From IMG/VR virus record IMGVR_UViG_3300009509_000020, positions 559 through 64,558 of that record: a DNA stretch of 64,000 nt; one strand, 5' to 3'. A program made the translations under genes and the position numbers. This stretch comes from a virus. Lineage: Duplodnaviria > Caudoviricetes. Below are positions 7,041 through 55,897 of the stretch, piece after piece. Positions within the stretch are counted from its first letter, which is position 1; every line of letters begins with the position of its first letter. Under the pieces are notes generated by a model. That model searched no databases and was not told the DNA's origin. It saw only the letters and a program-made list of their open reading frames with translations.

Positions 7041-8109
7041 GAGGATATAAGGTGTCTATTATTTTTCTAAACTCTTGCGGTTTTTCAGAATGGCGCTCTG
7101 TGCGTTCGCAAGTCACTACACTATCAAACTTTTTATCACTATCTGGCGTGCAACTTCCCCTGGTACAAATTAGTAGAAATTCATGCCGGACACTGTTGTA
7201 ATGCCCAAAGTTATGCTTGACTTTATCCCAGACAAACGAGGTTTTATACTTGAAACCCCAGGCGCGGATCACTGCAAAACATTCCTCTAGTAGGGGAGAT
7301 GTAACCCATAAAAATAGAACGGCATTATCCTCGGCCATGTTCTTGATTGGCAACTTGCATAGCTCGTCAAGACTCATGGTGGGATAGTGCCGTTCTGCAC
7401 GTCCATAGTTGTCATTGTTTATTACACCAGAGTTTCCATATTGCCACGGGGGATCGGCATAGATGACACGATATTTTCCAGTCGTTTCAAATTCTACTGG
7501 TTCTGGGCGCGTTACCTGTCGGTATGCCTCTTTTGGCTTGACGCCTTGCTCTATCAAGCCAACCATCTTTACTTGTTTTCCTTCTGGTAGCTCTGTGGCT
7601 TTGGCGGCTAGGCTCACGGCTATCTTGTCTAGCTCTACCGCCTGAGCAAGTTCTGGCGCGCCTTTGGCGAGGACTTTCTTGGCGCGTTGAATTGAATCAG
7701 ATGATACATTCAGTAGCGAGCCTGCATCGCCTTGAGAAATTACCGCAAATGCGGTAATTTTCTCCGGTCTGCCAGGCCCTTCCAAATTTGCTATCTTCGC
7801 TGCTACTATTGCCCGTTGGCTTTCGCTTAAATGTCTTCGATGCAAGTTCATACTCACCACGAAAGAAACCAGCGATCCTTGTTTTTCCCACGTCCTGAAT
7901 TGCGGGCGTGTCTCTGTTTCAATACAAGCCCTATGCCGGTTGCGCCCGTCAAGAATACTCCTATCTGGATGTAGCCAGATAGCCTCTCTAAGGCCATTGG
8001 CGGCAATATCGGCTTTAAGTTCCTCAAAGTCTTGCCCCTCCATAAGGGGAAATAACTGCGCTATTTCATTATATGGCCGGTTGATTTCCTGCTCAAGCCA
8101 GTTGTCCAT
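6967..8109 (-). CDS. ParB-N domain fused to MT-A70 family N6-adenine methyltransferase
   Basis: ILDGRNRHRAC and SMNLHRRHL (ParB-like); VIYADPPW, LFLWVT, HSEKP, IELFAR, WGNE (MT-A70). Start re-called at 8109 after AGGAG. Confidence 0.92.
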   Translation of the reverse strand: MDNWLEQEINRPYNEIAQLFPLMEGQDFEELKADIAANGLREAIWLHPDRSILDGRNRHRACIETETRPQFRTWEKQGSLVSFVVSMNLHRRHLSESQRAIVAAKIANLEGPGRPEKITAFAVISQGDAGSLLNVSSDSIQRAKKVLAKGAPELAQAVELDKIAVSLAAKATELPEGKQVKMVGLIEQGVKPKEAYRQVTRPEPVEFETTGKYRVIYADPPWQYGNSGVINNDNYGRAERHYPTMSLDELCKLPIKNMAEDNAVLFLWVTSPLLEECFAVIRAWGFKYKTSFVWDKVKHNFGHYNSVRHEFLLICTRGSCTPDSDKKFDSVVTCERTERHSEKPQEFRKIIDTLYPHGRRIELFAREKFEGWDTWGNEVE

Positions 8110-8123
8110 TTTTCTCCTCAAAC

Positions 8124-8295
8124 AAAAAGCACCGATGATCTGTCCCGGTGGCCGATGGCAATTACCCCCTAGCAATAGGTAACGACCACCGGCACAGATC
8201 GCCAGTGCTTTTTAGCTAGGGGTTTAGGCTTGCCACGGCCCGCGCTTCTTTTAATCGCGCAGCTATATTCTACCACTACTCTCCTGGATTGTCAA
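8124..8295 (-). promoter_or_regulatory. promoter plus structured A-B-A'-B' leader of the MT-A70 operon
   Basis: TTGACA(8295-8290)-17-TAGAAT; helices 8215-8235/8156-8173 and 8183-8213/8124-8154; U-tract after. Confidence 0.65.
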
Positions 8296-10454: not shown

Positions 10455-10617
10455 GCATGATAGTCAGTTAAGGCAAATGGATCGTCTGGCTCCGCCCCAG
10501 ATTTTTGCCCCTACAGCAAGTCAGAGCAGGGCAACCCATGCTACCGACCATCTTCTGACTTTTTGGGTCGTGTTCCTGTCCACGACGCGATCCATTTGCC
10601 TTAACTGACTATCATGC
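10455..10617. mobile_element. 163-bp element with perfect 30-bp terminal inverted repeats (IS4-like MITE or structured ncRNA)
   Basis: 10455-10484 is the exact reverse complement of 10588-10617. The end GCATGATAGTCAGTTAAG resembles IS4-type TAATGCCGATCAGTTAAG. No clear target-site duplication. Confidence 0.55.
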
Positions 10618-10623
10618 CATAAT

Positions 10624-10787
10624 AAAAAGGCCCTATCCACCCGACCCGTTGCCCGCTTTGTTGTTAATCACTCTTACCGCCAAGCAAAAGTGTGGCAAAA
10701 CAGGCCGGGGGGATAAGGCCCCTCGGTAACTACTATCATACTTTTGCTTGGCAATTTCATTGTACCACGAAATGGGCGATTTGTCAA
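10624..10787 (-). promoter_or_regulatory. promoter plus interleaved-helix leader of the RNA ligase operon
   Basis: TTGACA-17-TACAAT; A 10740-10752 / A' 10679-10691; B 10694-10720 / B' 10629-10653; U-tract; homologous to 49450-49598. Confidence 0.7.
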
Positions 10788-11567: not shown

Positions 11568-12060
11568 TCCAGGCCCGCTCGCTTGCTAGATAGGCCAATG
11601 CCGCCCTGATTGCATCTGCTTCGTCTTTTCCCACTTGCCGGTTCATGTCATTGGTCGCGTCTTGCACCCATAGCAGCGTCGCCGCCATGTGGTGTTTGCC
11701 GAGGCCGGCGGCCATGATCTCGTGCGGCGCAATCGGACAAAATTGTGCGCCATATTTTGCGGCCAGCCATGCCAGAAAATAGTATACGCCCCCCAATTGT
11801 CTATCGGTGCGCCGGTTGTCGTGGTCGCCCATCGGAATCTCCACCGCGAGGTGTGTGATTGGCCCACGCCTGATAAGGGTCTGAGCCATCAGCGCATCTA
11901 GCCAATTGCACGCGGCCACGATGCGGGCCGTTTCATCGGCACACTTTATGACCTTTTCGCCGCTAGAATGATAACGCCCATTAAGGAACAGCGCCCAGCC
12001 TATGGGGTTCTTTTTTGTCGCAGTTGACGGATCAATTCCCAGTAGGTTTATTGCTTTCAT
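11551..12060 (-). CDS. RuvC-like Holliday junction resolvase
   Basis: LLGIDPS, AVEIP, DEADAI acidic triad. Confidence 0.8.
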   Translation of the reverse strand: MKAINLLGIDPSTATKKNPIGWALFLNGRYHSSGEKVIKCADETARIVAACNWLDALMAQTLIRRGPITHLAVEIPMGDHDNRRTDRQLGGVYYFLAWLAAKYGAQFCPIAPHEIMAAGLGKHHMAATLLWVQDATNDMNRQVGKDEADAIRAALAYLASERAWNAFNR

Positions 12061-15383: not shown

Positions 15384-15560
15384 ATACTATGAGCGGCCGG
15401 CAATGAAAGTCGGGTACATCCCGTGTGACATTGTGGTCGAGGCCAGAATGCCCTAGTTGCCACGGGCCGCGAATAACCCGCCTGGACGCGGGGGGATAGC
15501 GGGGAATTACATAAAACAGGGGCGGCGCGGCGTCCAGGCTCTAATTTATGGAGGTGGAAA

Positions 15561-15673: not shown

Positions 15674-15781
15674 GGGGCTGGTAGCTCAGGCAGGCATGAG
15701 CGCGGCCAATTTCTAGATCGTTGGCTATTATAGTGACACTAGATAAGCTGGGGTCGCTGGTTCAAATCCAGCCCAGCCCCA
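15674..15781 (+). ncRNA. tRNA-like RNA with an elongated anticodon arm
   Basis: GGGGCTGG/CCAGCCCC acceptor, TA-GCTC...GAGC D arm, GCTGG-TTCAAAT-CCAGC T arm; a ~48-nt stem-loop replaces the anticodon arm. Confidence 0.8.
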
Positions 15782-18064: not shown

Positions 18065-18720
18065 GCCGGCCCGATGTAGTGGTAGACTGGTGTAGCTATG
18101 AGGCTGCCAAGTATGCGGTTGAGCATTGGCATTATAGTAAGCGAATGCTAGCGGGCAAATATATGAGTATCGGGATATGGGAAAACAGATTGTTTATCGG
18201 GGCTATTGTATTTAGTCACGGGGCTAACAAGGCAATTGGCAAGCAATATGGTCTGTCTCTTTTTCTGGCCTGTGAATTAAGCCGCGTGGCAATGACTAAG
18301 CACGCCATATTTGTTTCACATTTGATAGCAAAATCGTTATCTATGCTAAAAAGCCAAGCAGATCGGTTACGGCTTGTCGTTTCATACGCAGACCAAAGAG
18401 AGGGACACATAGGGGCGATTTATCAGGCCAGTAATTGGATATATGTAGGGCAATCGAGTGGGAATGATAGACGTAATTGCCCATATTTGAAACCTGGCGG
18501 CGGGATTGTGCAGTGGCGCACTATGTCAAAGATATGTCAGCGGCATGGAATGTCACACACCTTACAGGCGGCTATATCGTTGGGCTATACCCCGCTTGGC
18601 TTTATGCCAAAGCACAAATACCTCTACCCTCTCGATAAGGCCATGCGCCGACAAATCGAGCCTTTGGCACAACCATATCCAAAACGCGAACATGCGGGCG
18701 AGGTGCATGATGGTGCATAA
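18061..18720 (+). CDS. mom: Mom-family (GNAT-fold) DNA adenine-modifying enzyme
   Basis: HWHYS, CELSRVA, VVSYAD...GH.GAIYQASNW.Y.G, KHKYLYPL, PYPK. Confidence 0.85.
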   Translation: MSRPDVVVDWCSYEAAKYAVEHWHYSKRMLAGKYMSIGIWENRLFIGAIVFSHGANKAIGKQYGLSLFLACELSRVAMTKHAIFVSHLIAKSLSMLKSQADRLRLVVSYADQREGHIGAIYQASNWIYVGQSSGNDRRNCPYLKPGGGIVQWRTMSKICQRHGMSHTLQAAISLGYTPLGFMPKHKYLYPLDKAMRRQIEPLAQPYPKREHAGEVHDGA

Positions 18721-18765
18721 CTGGCGACCAGTCAGCAGGCGCAGGTTCAATTCCTGCCGCCCGCT
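18694..18765 (+). tRNA. non-canonical tRNA-Gly(ACC) overlapping the mom 3' end
   Basis: GCGGGCG/CGCCCGC + U73; D stem GTGC/GCAT; anticodon stem CTGG/TCAG with loop CG-ACC-AG; 4-nt variable loop; GCAGG-TTCAATT-CCTGC; no encoded CCA. Confidence 0.8.
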
Positions 18766-48919: not shown

Positions 48920-49453
48920 ATGACCTTAGAAGGATTGATCGGGCAATGGTGGTTTTGGATTGGGGCAATCGCCGTGGTATTTTTTGCCAGCGTTGGTATT
49001 GTCTATGGCCTAAAGGCAGCCAAGAATTGGCTCAAGGGCAAGGCCGATGATCCTGGCAAGGATGAATGGGATCAGGCCTACGAGCTTTTGGCCCCGTTCA
49101 TTGATCAGGTTATCGTCGCCGTATTCAAGTTATCTGAGGCCGCATCAGACGAAGTAGGCAAGCGATTGGATGAAGTAGACAAAGGCGCTCTTGCCGATAC
49201 GCTCTATGATGCAGCGCTTATTTGGGCACTTGAAACTCTCCCCCCCTGGGCAGTAACATTGATTTTTGACTATGTTACCCGCAATAGGTGGCGGGGTATG
49301 GTCGAAGAACGTTTCAACGAGCTTATAGATTTGTGGCGGGAAAAAAGCGGAGAGTTGCTTGATTGGCTGCGTCCAGACGCGCCTATTTCGACGCGGCTCT
49401 TTACGCTTGCTGGAAGCAGGCCGCCAAAGCTACAAATTCATACAACTGCTTGA
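48920..49453 (+). CDS. holin-like membrane protein
   Basis: One N-terminal transmembrane segment followed by a helical domain; end of late module. Confidence 0.4.
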   Translation: MTLEGLIGQWWFWIGAIAVVFFASVGIVYGLKAAKNWLKGKADDPGKDEWDQAYELLAPFIDQVIVAVFKLSEAASDEVGKRLDEVDKGALADTLYDAALIWALETLPPWAVTLIFDYVTRNRWRGMVEERFNELIDLWREKSGELLDWLRPDAPISTRLFTLAGSRPPKLQIHTTA

Positions 49454-49598
49454 CACGCGACTAAATCTATGGTAAAATAGGGTATAGCCAATTGCAGAGG
49501 TGGGGCCTTGTCCCCCTAGCCCAATTCGTCGTTTACTCTGCAATTGGCTGTAGAGAAATAACCTAAACGCGAACGGACTAGGGGGACAAGGCTTTTAT
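49450..49598 (+). promoter_or_regulatory. promoter plus interleaved-helix leader of the Y RNA-Ro60 operon
   Basis: TTGACA-17-TAAAAT; A 49483-99 / A' 49536-52 (17 bp); B 49505-19 / B' 49578-92 (15 bp perfect); TTTT. Confidence 0.75.
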
Positions 49599-49600
49599 AT

Positions 49601-49724
49601 GGCCGAGGTAGCTCAGTTGGCAGAGCGCCACAATAGTCTCATCTCTGTTTTGTCCATAGGCCGGCGGGAGAGGGTTATCGCATACGGGGCAAGGGGTCGC
49701 TAGTTCAAATCTAGCCCTCGGTCA
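49601..49724 (+). ncRNA. circularly permuted YrlA-like Y RNA (tRNA body with internal Ro-binding helix)
   Basis: 8-bp acceptor GGCCGAGG/CCTCGGTC with D and T arms; insert TTGTC-CATA-GGCCGG...GGGTTATC. Confidence 0.8.
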
Positions 49725-49730
49725 ATGGGT

Positions 49731-49795
49731 AGGCGGGCCGGAGTTTCAGCGTTATCTTAAGAAGATGAACCGCTGGACATCAATTTGCCCGCCTT
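49731..49795 (+). ncRNA. short Y RNA
   Basis: AGGCGGGC(C)GGA/TTTGCCCGCCT bulged-C helix, GTTATC motif, second stem TTCAGCG/CGCTGGA; directly upstream of Ro60. Confidence 0.82.
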
Positions 49796-49832
49796 AATTT
49801 TTACCCACGGAAGGGGGTCATAGGGAGCCGAA

Positions 49833-51419
49833 ATGACAAAAACATACCAATCTTTTTCAACGCGGCAAACGCTACAATCACAACCAATTCCTGGCTCAGA
49901 CCAAGTCAAGAATCAGGCCGGGGGTTATGCTTGGCAGATTGACGACTGGCAACGGCTAGAGCGGTTTCTCATCTTGGGCAGTGAGGGCGGGACGTATTAC
50001 GTCGGTGAACAGAAACTTACCTGCCAAAGTGGTGAGGCAACGTTACGTTGCATTAGGACAGATGGGCGGCGCGCCGTGGCGCAAATCGCTGAAGTCTCCG
50101 AGGCTGGGCGAGCGCCAAAGAACGAGCCTGCCCTTTTTGCGCTGGCAATGGCCTTGAAACTGGGGGATTGGACAACGCGCAAGGCCGCCGCTGAGGCGTT
50201 GCCGAGGGTAGCTAGAACTGGTACACACCTTTTGCATTTCTGTGCTTACATGGAGCAATTCGGCGGGTGGGGTCGTATAGCGCGTACGGCCATTGCCAAT
50301 TGGTATAACGGCAAAGAGGCCGATGCGCTGGCCTATCAGGTCGCCAAGTATCCGCAGCGCGATGGATGGTCACATCGGGATGTCTTGCGGCTCTCCCATC
50401 CCCGGCCGGCAAGTGAACAACGCGATCAACTTTACCGTCATATCACAGGGAAAAGGGTAGCAAACGAAAAGCTGCCTGCTATCATTGGGGCGATGCTTGA
50501 GGCACGAACGGCAAATGAAAAGACTATTGTGCGCCTCATTCGAGACGGCGGCCTGACACGTGAAATGCTGCCAACCGAATGCCTGAATTCTATCGCTGTT
50601 TGGGAAGCACTGCTTGAATCCATGCCCCTCACAGCCATGATCCGTAACCTGGGCAAAATGACCTCGATTGGACTTGTCAAGCCGATGTCACAGGCGGCCG
50701 GTAAAGTCATTGCTGAGTTGGATAACACAGAACGATTGCACAAAGCCAGGGTACATCCGGTACAGATTCTTGCGGCAATTATGACCTATAAGACAGGCAA
50801 GGGTTATCGGGGCCGCTTGTCATGGTCGCCAGTCTCACAGGTCGTTGATGCACTTGATAGGGCATTCTATGCCTCATTCGGCAATGTCGTCACGACTGGC
50901 AAGCGGTATTGTTTCGGGCTTGATGTTTCGGGTTCTATGGCCGGCACTCAGGTAAACGGTATTCCGTTCTTGTCTTGCCGCTCCGCCTGTGGAGCTATGG
51001 CGCTAGTATCAGCGGCGCGTGAACCGAATAACTTGTTTGTCGCCTTTGATACTCAGGCATATAACTTGGCGATCTCATCCCGCCAAAGGCTTGACGACGT
51101 GACACGTATCTTGCAGCAAACAGGGGGTGGCGGTACTGATTGTGCCATTCCCATTGCCTATGCCTACCATGCGCAGATACCGATTGATATGTTTGTTGTC
51201 TTGACAGATAGCGAGACATGGTGGGGCAAGATACATCCTGCTCAGGCTATGCAGGAATATCGTCAAAGAATTGGGATGCCGGCCAAGCTGGCGGTTGTAG
51301 CCATGTCGGCAACGCAGACGACGCTTGCCGATCCGCAGGATGCAGGACAAATTAACTTTGTTGGCTTTGATACTGCCACACCACAACTTATCAGTGACTT
51401 TGCGGCCTCTGACCATTGA
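49833..51419 (+). CDS. rsr: Ro60/Rsr TROVE + vWA RNA-binding protein
   Basis: QVKNQAGGY, RLERFLILGSEGGTYY, KY.QRDGWSHRD.LRL.HP, AMIRNLGKMT, LDVSGSM, GGTDC, TDSET, VGFD. Confidence 0.95.
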   Translation: MTKTYQSFSTRQTLQSQPIPGSDQVKNQAGGYAWQIDDWQRLERFLILGSEGGTYYVGEQKLTCQSGEATLRCIRTDGRRAVAQIAEVSEAGRAPKNEPALFALAMALKLGDWTTRKAAAEALPRVARTGTHLLHFCAYMEQFGGWGRIARTAIANWYNGKEADALAYQVAKYPQRDGWSHRDVLRLSHPRPASEQRDQLYRHITGKRVANEKLPAIIGAMLEARTANEKTIVRLIRDGGLTREMLPTECLNSIAVWEALLESMPLTAMIRNLGKMTSIGLVKPMSQAAGKVIAELDNTERLHKARVHPVQILAAIMTYKTGKGYRGRLSWSPVSQVVDALDRAFYASFGNVVTTGKRYCFGLDVSGSMAGTQVNGIPFLSCRSACGAMALVSAAREPNNLFVAFDTQAYNLAISSRQRLDDVTRILQQTGGGGTDCAIPIAYAYHAQIPIDMFVVLTDSETWWGKIHPAQAMQEYRQRIGMPAKLAVVAMSATQTTLADPQDAGQINFVGFDTATPQLISDFAASDH

Positions 51420-51449
51420 CGCCGGGCTAATTCTGTGGTAGAATAGAGT

Positions 51450-51545
51450 CATAAAGGCGGCCTTGGCAAGCCGCGCACAGGATCGTAGCGTTTCTTCTCC
51501 TTTCGCAAAATGCGCCGGAAAGAGCACCCCGGCGCATTTTGTGTT
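51450..51545 (+). ncRNA. candidate sRNA with exposed anti-SD sequence
   Basis: Own promoter TTGACG(51416)-17-TAGAAT; no ORF; TTCTTCTCCTTTCG followed by hairpin caaaatgcgccgg/ccggcgcattttg. Confidence 0.55.
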
Positions 51546-51552
51546 TTAAAGC

Positions 51553-51587
51553 AAGGCCCTGGCCATCACGAGCAGGGCCTTTTGTTT
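51553..51587 (+). terminator. intrinsic terminator
   Basis: aaggccctg...cagggcctt-ttgttt. Confidence 0.7.
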
Positions 51588-51600
51588 ATCAGGGACAATA

Positions 51601-51682
51601 GTTAGAAACTAGTTAGAATCACAAAAACACGCGAAACAGTATGCTAAAGCCGCTTGACAGATAGGGCCATTTGTGGTATACT
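51601..51682 (+). promoter_or_regulatory. promoter with upstream GTTAGA direct repeat
   Basis: TTGACA(51654)-17-TATACT; GTTAGAaactaGTTAGA at 51601. Confidence 0.7.
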
Positions 51683-53041: not shown

Positions 53042-53369
53042 ACGAGGAAGGCCGGCCGGGCAATGGCCTCAGCGTCATCTTCGGGTGGCCGCTGAGGCGC
53101 AAGAGTTACAGGCAGTCTGTATTGCCGTGCCAGATACGCGGCAACGCACGATTGTATTATTGGCTACTCCAGACCTGGCAGATGCACTGGCGCTCATAAC
53201 GGCTAATGCACGAGAAATATGGCACGCAACAGACACAATTGCAAGGGCCAATGAGCCGGGTTCTATGATAAGACAAAGCAATTCCATCATAGCCAGGCAG
53301 GCCAAAGAAATATATGACCTGGCAACTGAAGCAAGGGCAGTTCTGAGGGGAGAAGAAACTGATGAATGA
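53034..53369 (+). CDS. hypothetical protein (N-terminal KRGRP AT-hook)
   Basis: AAGGA RBS. Confidence 0.55.
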   Translation: MSKRGRPAGQWPQRHLRVAAEAQELQAVCIAVPDTRQRTIVLLATPDLADALALITANAREIWHATDTIARANEPGSMIRQSNSIIARQAKEIYDLATEARAVLRGEETDE

Positions 53370-54375
53370 AGTGAGTTTGACAAAGGTACTCAGGGCGCAT
53401 CGTCTTTGGCTATATCGGCCCGCGAGCCGATTTGCAAGGCGAGCCGACCTACGCGGGGCCGACTTGACCGAGGCCGACCTGACCAGAGCCGACCTGACCG
53501 GGGCCAATCTGACCGGGGCCGACTTGCGTTGGGTCAACCTGACCGGGGCCGACCTGACCGAGGCCAATCTGACCGGGGCCAATCTGACCGGGGCCGACTT
53601 GCGTTGGGTCAACCTGACCGGGGCCGACCTGACCGAGGTCAACCTGACCGGGGCCAATCTGACCGGGGCCGACCTGACCGAGGCCAATCTGACCGGGGCA
53701 AACTTGTGCGGGACAACCCTGACCGAGGCCAATCTGACCGGGGCCGACCTGACCGGGGCCGACCTGACCGAGGCCAATCTGACCGAGGCCAATCTGACCG
53801 AGGCCAATCTGACCGGGGCCGACCTGACCGGGGCCGACTTGACCGAGGCCGGCCTGCGCGGGGCAAACTTGTGCGGGGCAAACTTGACCGGGGCAAACTT
53901 GTGCGGGGCAAACCTGACCGGGGCCGACTTGACCGAGGCCGACCTGCGCGGGGCCGACTTGACCAGAGCAAACTTGCGCTGGTCAAACTTGGCCGGGGCA
54001 AACTTGACCGGGGCCGGCTTGCGCGGGGCCGACTTGACCGAGGCCGACCTGCGCGGGACAAACTTGACCAGAGCAAACTTGTGCGGGGCAAACTTGACCG
54101 GGGCAAACTTGTGCGGGGCAAGTTTGACCAGTGCAAACTTGTGCGGGGCAAACTTGGCCGGGACATCTGGCAAATTTGCTACTGGCTCATTTGGCCGTCA
54201 TCATGCTATCGCAGCAGGCGGTTATATATCAATTGGCTGTGAGCGTCATACATTTGCCGAATGGTTGGTTCAGTATGAAGAAATCGGACGCAAGTACGAT
54301 TACACCAAAACCGAGATTAAATTATATGGTGATTGGATTAAGGCCGTAGTTAGTTGGCTTGAAGGTGAGTCCTAG
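53362..54375 (+). CDS. pentapeptide repeat protein
   Basis: Long A(D/N)LxG/E array encoded by 15-bp repeats (about 53440-54160); C-terminal ISIGCE.H...W domain. Confidence 0.95.
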   Translation: MNEVSLTKVLRAHRLWLYRPASRFARRADLRGADLTEADLTRADLTGANLTGADLRWVNLTGADLTEANLTGANLTGADLRWVNLTGADLTEVNLTGANLTGADLTEANLTGANLCGTTLTEANLTGADLTGADLTEANLTEANLTEANLTGADLTGADLTEAGLRGANLCGANLTGANLCGANLTGADLTEADLRGADLTRANLRWSNLAGANLTGAGLRGADLTEADLRGTNLTRANLCGANLTGANLCGASLTSANLCGANLAGTSGKFATGSFGRHHAIAAGGYISIGCERHTFAEWLVQYEEIGRKYDYTKTEIKLYGDWIKAVVSWLEGES

Positions 54376-54738: not shown

Positions 54739-55039
54739 CAATAGGCCAATCGGGGCAATAGATATTAGGCGCGCCGCCTGCCTAAGTGGCGGCACATTCT
54801 ACAGGGGGACGCACCCATCACGCGTCCCCCTTTCCATTTACGAATGTTGAGGATTATGTAAGAATTGGTTAAAAATTGATTAAATAGCGCGATATTACTT
54901 CACTTTTACTTGACAAATGGGAAAAGGCCATGTAAACTTGTAGGTATGGGTATCATCACCATCACAAACAGAGACGACATAGCGGCCGGGGGATAATGCA
55001 GTAGCATTGTTCCCCTTTTTGTACATAGGAGATAGATAC

Positions 55040-55897
55040 ATGGGCGGCTTCCTGACGGTATTGACAGGAGATCATCATTGTGGTAGCTATTTCGGTTTGT
55101 GTCCATCGAAGGTCAATCTCGAAGATCAAGGCGAGTACCGGCCCTCACCAGTCCAGCGCGCATTACTAAAAGCATGGCTTGATTTCTGGGGTGAGGCAGG
55201 ACAGATAGCAAAGACAAATAATGTTGAGGCAATCAATCTGATTTTCGGCGGCGACTTGATGGATCTGAATTGGCATGATTCCGGGGCCGTGTTCACCCGC
55301 AATCCTGGCGTTTTGAAGGCTGTGGCCGCTGAGATAGTAGACCTGGCCCTGGGCAGATTGCGAGAGACAGTGCCCAAGACGCCTATCTATCTATTCGTTG
55401 TGCGTGGCACGCCAGCCCACGTTGGACGTAAGGGACAGCTAGAGGAAGCCATAGCTCAAGACTTGGCAGCAGAAAAAGACGAACAAAGAAATACTTGGAG
55501 CTGGTATACCTTGAATCTGGTCTCTGGCGGCATAACAATCAATATCCAGCATCACCCAGAGGCCGCAACATATAGAGAACATACCGATGGCGGCGCGGCC
55601 CGAACAATAGCAAGCGAAGTCTGTATCAGCCATTGGCGCAACGGGCAAAACCCGCCAGATATAGCGGTACGATTCCATGCCCATCGCTGGCAGGATAGCG
55701 GACGAAACCTGCCGTGTCAGGCATTCTGTTGTCACGGCTGGCAACTGGCAACGGATTTCGGCCGGCGTAAGGGGGCAGGGGCCAAGATTTTGCCGGTTGG
55801 TGGTATGTGGATTTTGGCAGAGAACGGGGCTTATACCTATGATGAAATCAATTACGTTCCGAGGGGACAGGTGAGCACATGGCGACAAAAACAATGA
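55040..55897 (+). CDS. calcineurin-like metallophosphoesterase
   Basis: GDHHCG, GGDLMD, RGTPAH, QHH, FHAH; promoter TTGACA(54910)-17-TAAACT upstream. Confidence 0.8.
   Translation: MGGFLTVLTGDHHCGSYFGLCPSKVNLEDQGEYRPSPVQRALLKAWLDFWGEAGQIAKTNNVEAINLIFGGDLMDLNWHDSGAVFTRNPGVLKAVAAEIVDLALGRLRETVPKTPIYLFVVRGTPAHVGRKGQLEEAIAQDLAAEKDEQRNTWSWYTLNLVSGGITINIQHHPEAATYREHTDGGAARTIASEVCISHWRNGQNPPDIAVRFHAHRWQDSGRNLPCQAFCCHGWQLATDFGRRKGAGAKILPVGGMWILAENGAYTYDEINYVPRGQVSTWRQKQ

Follow-up and report, generated by a model that had tools for sequence, protein, structure and literature searches.

Two paralogous promoter-proximal leader RNAs as candidate transcription attenuators before the Ro60/Y-RNA and RNA-ligase genes of a phage

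We analyzed a 64,000-nucleotide stretch of DNA (the window), which comprises bases 559-64558 of the 64,558-bp IMG/VR virus record IMGVR_UViG_3300009509_000020, a Caudoviricetes genome that has direct terminal repeats and is rated complete. The window contains two structured RNA leaders, one (leader 1, plus strand) between a promoter and a Ro60/Y-RNA module, and the other (leader 2, minus strand) between a promoter and an RNA-ligase gene. In both of them the same segment, A', can pair either with the 5'-terminal segment A or with segment C inside a long terminator-like rod, and both pairings have been kept by compensatory changes. We give even chances to the reading that leaders 1 and 2 are paralogous promoter-proximal RNAs acting as transcription attenuators, in which the A:A' helix is set against the rod. 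As judged from their sequence and position, the leaders would probably gate transcription into the Ro60/Y-RNA and RNA-ligase genes.

The segments of both leaders are listed in Table 1. A first-pass annotation of this DNA had placed leader 1 directly 3' of a promoter, and a sigma-70-type site with TG and 11/12 matches was indeed found there, from which the RNA is predicted to start at about 49484-49487. The same annotation had described a 17-bp helix interleaved with a 15-bp perfect helix that ends in TTTT. Both helices were present as described: A:A' consists of 14 perfect Watson-Crick bp (49486-49499/49536-49549), or 17 bp (49483-49499/49536-49552) including one G.U pair, and B:B' consists of 15 perfect bp (49505-49519/49578-49592), followed by TTTT at 49593-49596. 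Segment B forms a GGGG/CCCC mini-hairpin while A:A' is paired. Scanning of the window for perfect stems with 9 bp or more and a span <140 returned 51 per strand, together with three interleaved stem pairs, of which only that of leader 1 had two stems of at least 14 bp and a T-run; the other two were made of 9-10-bp stems without a T-run.

The second leader, which had been reported near 10752-10624 on the minus strand, spans 10752-10618 and has the same order of segments as leader 1, with its RNA start predicted at G10752. Both leaders start ~7 nt past the -10 hexamer of an 11/12 promoter with an extended TG. To compare them by sequence and structure, a covariance model (R1) was built from the leader 1 sequence alone, and searches were run with filters off. 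R1 recovered leader 2 at 34.3 bits (E 3e-7), in agreement with the earlier view that the two are homologous, and the next unrelated match, inside the MT-A70 coding region at 7308-7416 (minus strand), reached 16.5 bits (E 0.03) and was taken as chance. The antisense strand of leader 1 scored 30.7 bits because the rod is nearly palindromic. The alignment was anchored by elements conserved in both leaders, namely the GCCAA/UUGGC flanks, the B motif GGGGCCUURUCCCCC and AACGG. Segment B is near-invariant between the leaders, unlike segment A.

Pair-by-pair comparison of the two leaders confirmed the compensatory changes that had been noticed earlier. In A:A', 6 of the 13 pairs were the same and 7 had changed on both sides, with none changed on one side and none broken. 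In B:B', 9 of the 15 pairs were the same, 2 had changed on one side and 3 on both sides, and 1 was broken. A third helix, A':C, had gone unnoticed; none of its 7 pairs (C = 49549-49555 in leader 1 and 10676-10670 in leader 2) was the same, yet none was broken, 5 having changed on both sides and 2 on one side. When the 3' partner was shifted by 1-3 columns as a control, 9-12 of the 13 A:A' pairs and 6-11 of the 15 B:B' pairs were broken. A:A' and A':C are mutually exclusive, and the retention of both appears hard to explain except by a switch. Competition of A and C for A' is what characterizes an RNA that alternates between a 5' helix and a long terminator rod.

Folding energies were calculated with ViennaRNA, in which pseudoknots are not scorable. 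Both leaders folded better than their shuffled sequences (z -5.9 for leader 1 and -4.9 for leader 2, with 0 of 200 shuffles as good for each). The duplex between the upstream strand and the interior had an energy of -28.1 kcal/mol in leader 1 and -23.6 kcal/mol in leader 2, which was equaled by 0 and 7 of 1000 dinucleotide shuffles, respectively. Of the single helices, A:A' had duplex energies of -26.5 (leader 1) and -20.5 kcal/mol (leader 2), B:B' of -33.9 and -29.1 kcal/mol, and A':C of -8.7 kcal/mol in leader 1. The minimum-free-energy fold of both leaders was not a pseudoknot but a single ~95-nt rod, with B:B' at its base beside the U-tract and A':C at its tip. In folds of the growing chain, A:A' was best from the emergence of A' until B' emerged, and the rod was best thereafter (-54 and -56 kcal/mol, respectively). 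Segment A' is common to A:A' and A':C, and A:A' has no nucleotide in common with the basal helix B:B' in leaders 1 and 2.

By sequence, both leaders resemble intrinsic terminators, with a G+C-rich basal stem of 15-21 pairs followed by UUUU or UUUUU, and the U-tracts are found on the transcribed strand only. They are atypical terminators in that their hairpins span 88-92 nt and were thus missed by a standard scan (loop of 3-8 nt). Each leader is roughly 115-135 nt long, and its U-tract lies directly before the next RNA. Promoter scans listed no other usable promoter between leaders 1 and 2 and their downstream genes, indicating that downstream expression must cross the leader terminator.

Table 1. 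Positions of the leaders, their segments and other promoter-terminator units in the window
Feature	Position	Strand	Details
Leader 1, promoter	49450-49478	+	TTGACA, 17-nt spacer, TAAAAT preceded by TG; 11/12 matches
Leader 1, segment A (GCCAAUUGCAGAG)	49487-49499	+	Predicted RNA 5' end; partner A'
Leader 1, segment B	49502-49522	+	5' arm of terminator rod
Leader 1, segment A'	49536-49548	+	Alternative partners: A, or C via 49536-49542
Leader 1, segment C (UGUAGAG)	49549-49555	+	With A', apical hairpin of rod; loop AUUGGC
Leader 1, segment B' and U-tract	49575-49597	+	3' arm of rod; TTTT 49593-49596
Leader 2, promoter	10759-10787	-	TTGACA, 17-nt spacer, TACAAT with TG; 11/12 matches
Leader 2, segment A (GCCAAGCAAAAGU)	10740-10752	-	
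Leader 2, linker	10723-10739	-	In leader 2 only, leader 1 being without it; read directly from sequence
Leader 2, segment B	10702-10722	-	
Leader 2, segment A'	10679-10691	-	
Leader 2, segment C (GGUAAGAGUG)	10669-10678	-	Hairpin with A'; loop UGGC
Leader 2, segment B' and U-tract	10624-10650	-	TTTTT 10628-10624
Leader 3 with its promoter	8121-8295	-	Promoter 8295-8267; leader of ~140 nt, 8260-8121; A3 8240-8215; A3' 8173-8150; rod 8208-8129; TTTTT 8128-8124
Small-RNA-like unit	51416-51590	+	Promoter TTGACG, 17 nt, TAGAAT with TG, overlapping the Ro60 stop codon
Plain promoter-terminator-gene unit	54910-55041	+	~50-nt leader, 12-bp hairpin and UUUUU, ribosome-binding site, start of a 296-amino-acid open reading frame of no known family

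We propose that the RNA would begin at segment A and would have two alternative folds available. In the read-through fold, the 5'-terminal helix A:A' would form first during transcription and loop out B. In the termination fold, the ~95-nt rod, with B:B' beside the U-tract and A':C at the tip, would serve as a long intrinsic terminator. With A holding A', the interior of the rod would not be pre-organized and a bulky helix would stand beside the base of the terminator stem, which would slow completion of the hairpin and allow the polymerase to continue. Read-through of leader 1 would lead into the tRNA-like RNA, the Y RNA and Ro60, and that of leader 2 into a structured 5' region and the RNA ligase. 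If A were kept from A', the rod would form and transcription would stop at 49593-49597 or 10628-10624. A working terminator, a lowering of termination by A:A' and a factor that chooses the fold are all predictions of this model. Candidate triggers are a protein on the B mini-hairpin, whose near-invariance suggests a protein site, an RNA pairing with the 5' GCCAA strand, and the speed of the polymerase.

Leader 1 is followed by a tRNA-like RNA, a Y-type hairpin and the gene for Ro60 (TROVE and vWA domains), in this order. The tRNA-like RNA (49602-49723, plus strand) contains an 8-bp acceptor-like stem, which leader 1 adjoins, together with D and T arms, and its anticodon position is taken up by a 63-nt insert. 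It matched the Rfam tRNA model at 40.3 bits in a local scan, and ARAGORN called zero tRNAs in the window. From its predicted fold this RNA (49601-49724) looks like a Y-RNA tRNA-mimic with open acceptor ends, in a layout that is presumably the reverse of that of YrlA. In one sediment run, two 31-nt contigs with a depth of 950 each matched the 5' half of the tRNA-like RNA (49602-49630) with 2 differences; these contigs probably represent the abundant cellular tRNA that it mimics. The hairpin at 49730-49794 (plus strand) resembles nematode stem-bulge (Y-type) RNAs (ceN72-3_ceN74-2, 28.3 bits, below the gathering score of 38). The Y-type hairpin region (49730-49805) carries GGCCGGA, and UUAAUUUUU is found 3' of the hairpin, followed by the Ro60 ribosome-binding site GGGAG and the ATG at 49833. 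Ro60 thus sits behind two terminator-like sites.

Leader 2 is followed by a 30-bp perfect stem (10617-10588/10484-10455, minus strand), which encloses 103 nt (z -9.6) and is a plausible substrate of RNase III or of the ligase. Behind the stem lie a Shine-Dalgarno (SD) sequence, AAGGAG (10454-10449), and the RNA-ligase gene (PF09414 and an OB fold), for which ATG 10440 is the likely start. Reading by eye, we found that, apart from a 1-nt indel, the linker of leader 2 (10739-10725) matches the 5' arm of this stem (AUGAUAGU-AGUUA versus AUGAUAGUCAGUUA), and the linker could pair with the 3' arm of the stem.

A further leader (leader 3) is followed by the SD sequence GAGGAG and ATG 8109 of an MT-A70 methylase gene. 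Its A3' segment lies in the apical part of the terminator rod, its duplex had an energy of -35.4 kcal/mol, with 2 of 1000 shuffles as good, and folds of the growing chain passed through the same order of events as in leaders 1 and 2. By contrast with those leaders, the helix formed by the upstream strand shares sequence with the upper 3' arm of the rod. No support was obtained for homology with leaders 1 and 2, model R1 reaching only 12.9 bits (E 0.29); the only shared sequence was CCCCUAGC/GCUAGGGG, found at 3 sites in the window against 1.7 expected. Leader 3 therefore seems analogous in design and not clearly homologous. The first-pass annotation had tied the leaders to RNA repair and proposed that they co-regulate two repair loci. 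Leaders 1 and 2 do precede the Ro60/Y and RNA-ligase modules, which may be co-regulated; the presence of leader 3 before a DNA-methylase gene indicates that the design is not confined to RNA-repair genes.

We also considered other ways of controlling such leaders. Ribosome-mediated attenuation by a leader peptide was rejected, as no conserved short reading frame with a start codon and an SD sequence was present in leaders 1-3. By eye, leader 2 contains a 21-codon AUG frame without an SD sequence, leader 1 only a GUG without spacing from AGAGG, and leader 3 no AUG. A scan for antisense promoters listed a 9/12 site with TG opposite leader 2 (10596-10623, plus strand) and none opposite leader 1.

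The unit at 51416-51590 comprises the hairpin GCGGC-CUUGGCAA-GCCGC and then two terminators, each a hairpin with a U-tract; the next promoter is at 51654, with no gene between. This unit is a candidate small RNA gene, or it may be the end of the Ro60 unit. Its loop CUUGGCAA is complementary to the 5' end of leader 2 over 6 nt and to that of leader 1 over 5 nt. The 14-mer GGCCKTGGCAAGCC occurs exactly twice, at 8227-8240 (minus strand) and 51459-51472 (plus strand), in both cases at most 35 nt downstream of the -10 of a strong promoter. All three leaders and the unit at 51451 have a hairpin loop containing UGGC, with differences in size and register. Two other candidates were set aside: a 12-nt match to segment A at 11899-11910, which has a palindromic CAATTG core and probably arose by chance, and a leader at 15390-15560, which folded no better than shuffles (z -0.24).

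We searched for homologues of the leaders. The first-pass annotation had proposed an Rfam scan to exclude motifs of the C4 type, and no family matched the leaders either at gathering scores or permissively. With Rfam 15 over the whole window at gathering thresholds, the two matches obtained were both to tRNA and both elsewhere, and permissive local scans over the leaders returned only hairpins of microRNA models at 14-21 bits, against thresholds of 66-100. Membership in the T-box leaders or C4 antisense RNAs was rejected for lack of an Rfam match, and membership in the Y RNAs (YrlA, YrlB) because the Ro60-binding motif GNCGAAN0-1G is absent in leaders 1, 2 and 3 and no Y-RNA model matched. The exact B motif was found in 37 stretches of IMG/VR, none with the B' complement downstream; a gapped B...B' pattern was found in 5 metagenome and 9 genome stretches, none of them leader-like; and two further IMG/VR patterns gave 0 matches each. 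When the three leader regions were compared by blastn with 50,697 GenBank phage records, only matches to tRNA halves or one 33-nt chance match were obtained. A stem scan upstream of 27 ligase homologues (35-54% amino acid identity) and about 80 phage Ro60 loci detected 0 interleaved designs, and the wide stems found there resemble Y-RNA stems. Model R1 gave 0 matches at E <= 1 over 100 loci (0.5 Mb), and a model R2 gave 0 matches over 10 whole phage records.

Closer relatives of the Ro60 protein were found in Logan assemblies (P0002, 82%; P0003, 77%, on a 51-kb contig; P0004, 75%). The region itself is present in 20 runs from 7 studies of sediment and soil, one of which is possibly the source of the window, and contigs of four runs were aligned to 49380-49860. 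A 429-nt contig from a near-identical strain differed by C49515U and the loss of C49578 within the 114-nt leader 1, and over the 215 nt that follow it by 11 substitutions and a 2-nt deletion. C49515U, which keeps a G.U pair with G49582, was also seen in a second study. Three contigs from two studies matched the window only downstream of 49449 or 49460, with unlike sequence upstream. This mosaic junction lies exactly at the -35 of the Ro60 cassette promoter, suggesting that the promoter, leader, non-coding RNAs and Ro60 behave as one movable cassette.

The anatomy of leaders 1 and 2 is solid; their attenuator function is a prediction, and several points weigh against it. The covariation, seen between only two paralogues of the same genome whose alignment was guided by their own structure, does not amount to a phylogenetic test. 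Searches of all the collections covered returned no homologue, and the 20 runs are all of DNA, with 0 of RNA. Substitution density in the leader compared with its flank was not significantly different (Fisher p = 0.06). A:A' and B:B' share no nucleotide, so that the effect of A:A' on termination is a matter of steric and kinetic reasoning only; the two helices could coexist as a pseudoknot, and A:A' need not block termination. A:A' is also expected to form by default, so that a constitutive read-through state is possible. Finally, other promoter-terminator-gene units such as that at 54910-55041 would fit genome-wide antitermination as well as they fit attenuation.

The last point leads to a different explanation, in which the terminators are constitutive and are overridden by processive antitermination encoded by the phage, comparable to lambda N/nut, Q at PR'-tR' or HK022 put, with the leader hairpins as recognition or polymerase-modifying elements. 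Several strong promoters precede terminators before the first gene (leaders 1-3, and a plain hairpin at 54910-55041), and the near-invariance of segment B, not seen in A, fits a protein-binding hairpin, as might the recurrence of UGGC-containing loops in leaders 1, 2 and 3 and the unit at 51451. We nevertheless regard antitermination as fairly unlikely, because it leaves the A/A' and C/A' covariation unexplained and the UGGC loops vary in size and register; antiterminator families were detected in 0 of 40 phage proteins (PHROGs) and 0 of 20 (Pfam), a weak argument given that most proteins match nothing. The leaders might instead be free-standing small RNAs that act in trans, or cofactor or substrate RNAs of Ro60 or the ligase like YrlB and Yrn2, with the genes expressed by leak only. 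With a promoter, ~115-135 nt of structured RNA and a terminator, each leader has all the parts of a small-RNA gene, and the gene-less promoter-hairpin-terminator unit at 51416-51590 suggests that the phage makes small RNAs. According to PMC4201824, each bacterium studied has a second, long-hairpin Y RNA and Y RNAs lie upstream of rsr. This explanation seems unlikely to us: the Ro60-binding motif GNCGAAN0-1G (PMC4201824) is absent from leaders 1 and 2, one leader precedes the ligase and not Ro60, and the downstream RNAs or genes start right after the U-tract without a usable promoter of their own, so the terminator must be crossed anyway.

Coexistence of A:A' and B:B' as a stable long-range pseudoknot, serving as a structural domain at the 5' end that would guard this end or guide processing (by RNase P before the tRNA-like RNA, or by RNase III at the long stems) without any switching, appears quite unlikely. 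The two helices have no common nucleotides, the linkers of leader 1 (2-5, 16 and 25 nt) are by geometric reasoning long enough for both, their summed duplex energies (-26.5 and -33.9 kcal/mol) come close to that of the rod, and leader 1 adjoins the 8-bp acceptor-like stem. However, the conserved and covarying A':C hairpin would then have no role, and the two folds are mutually exclusive in leader 3, where A3' is partly the same sequence as the upper 3' arm of the rod. That the leaders are a product of chance or a feature of the DNA, such as operator repeats or the relic of a duplicated cassette, with no function as RNA, we consider very improbable. There are two copies only, in one genome, and they are partly palindromic, as the 30.7 bits of antisense leader 1 indicate; but the shuffle tests and the 15 both-sided compensatory pairs across three helices speak for RNA, as do the restriction of the U-tracts to the transcribed strand and the constant placement of the leaders with respect to their promoters.

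A broader version of the attenuator reading, which we hold only tentatively and think improbable as a whole, is that these leaders represent a hitherto undescribed, loop-invading class of attenuators, in which a 5'-terminal strand would capture the apical strand of an extended terminator rod and a factor acting in trans on the 5' GCCAA strand or the B hairpin would decide the expression of an RNA-repair/anti-defense regulon. The regulon would include Ro60 with the tRNA-like and Y RNAs, the RNA ligase and, through the analogous leader, the DNA methylase. Candidate triggers would be the small RNA unit at 51451-51590 and RNA ends made by host nucleases.

The window encodes a large terminase, a portal protein, a head protease/major head protein, a DnaD-like loader and a partition protein, and the portal protein had no kin in IMG/VR. 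The genes between ~950 and ~15300 are encoded on the minus strand, and those beyond on the plus strand. Matches to sigma-70-type promoters were about twice as frequent as in shuffled sequence (43 versus 26 and 50 versus 26), and the near-consensus set has in common TTGACA, 17 nt and (G)TGGTAnAAT. Rfam tRNA matches occur at 15675-15780 (plus strand, 37.1 bits, 106 nt with an insert) and 18694-18765 (plus strand, 35.8 bits), neither of which was called by ARAGORN. A pentapeptide-repeat protein of 337 amino acids (PF00805, E 1e-110) is encoded at 53362-54375 (plus strand) in the right arm of the phage.

Terminator/antiterminator leaders are a well-known class, with the trp leader and the countertranscript-driven attenuators of pT181, pIP501 and pAMbeta1 as examples. 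Like these, the phage leaders are promoter-proximal, place an intrinsic terminator before the first gene and have an early upstream strand that would pre-empt a later helix, and their alternative pairings share one strand, which in this phage is A'. In the classical attenuators the layout is different: here the pre-empting helix of leaders 1 and 2 spares the basal stem and takes the apical strand of a ~95-nt rod, A:A' and B:B' are interleaved, and neither a conserved leader peptide nor a convincing antisense promoter was found, the best being the 9/12 site opposite leader 2. Among the layouts described, the closest that we found belongs to cATTpLS20, a zipper-type attenuator on conjugative plasmids of Bacillus, which according to PMC13401043 has a long imperfect stem-loop, complementarity between upstream and downstream strands, and an extended antiterminator opposed to an intrinsic terminator within a long leader, a set of features that the phage leaders are predicted to share. 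Zipper-type attenuators are nested, their upstream strand pairing with the terminator itself and extending the central stem, whereas the phage leaders pair inside the hairpin in an interleaved manner, and the hosts, genes and sequences are unrelated.

In phages, the lambda PR'-tR' region with its 6S RNA and Q has a similar arrangement, in which a strong promoter is followed by a short structured RNA and then by a terminator ahead of the genes, and nutL/nutR of lambda and putL/putR of HK022 are paired promoter-proximal RNA elements in two operons. Unlike in those systems, no Q, N or other antiterminator family was found among the scanned proteins, and the three-way covariation among A, A' and C suggests an internal switch, which lambda and HK022 are not known to have.

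Ro60/Y-RNA modules and RNA ligases of phages are thought to handle RNA damage during infection. As described in PMC4201824 and PMC12135203, the Y RNAs YrlA, YrlB and Yrn2 are, like the leaders, structured and located directly upstream of Ro60 in one precursor, one kind being a long hairpin, and the Ro60-binding motif GNCGAAN0-1G lies near the Y RNA 5' end (PMC4201824). The phage leaders differ in that they are without this motif and without a match to a Y-RNA model, one of them precedes a ligase, and the Y-like RNAs of this phage lie downstream, at 49601-49794. Our literature search, which covered abstracts and text passages, found no attenuator upstream of Ro60 or a Y RNA; the words terminator and leader are absent from the passages of PMC4201824, as are terminator, promoter and operon from those of PMC12135203. 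In bacteria, the control known for such genes is exerted by the sigma-54 activator RtcR (PMC7790460). If the attenuator reading is true, a strong constitutive promoter followed by a self-contained RNA switch ahead of the repair genes would be an answer unlike RtcR to the timing of expression. The range of known attenuator designs would then also gain a variant with an interleaved layout, its pre-empting helix engaging the terminator hairpin at the tip instead of the base.

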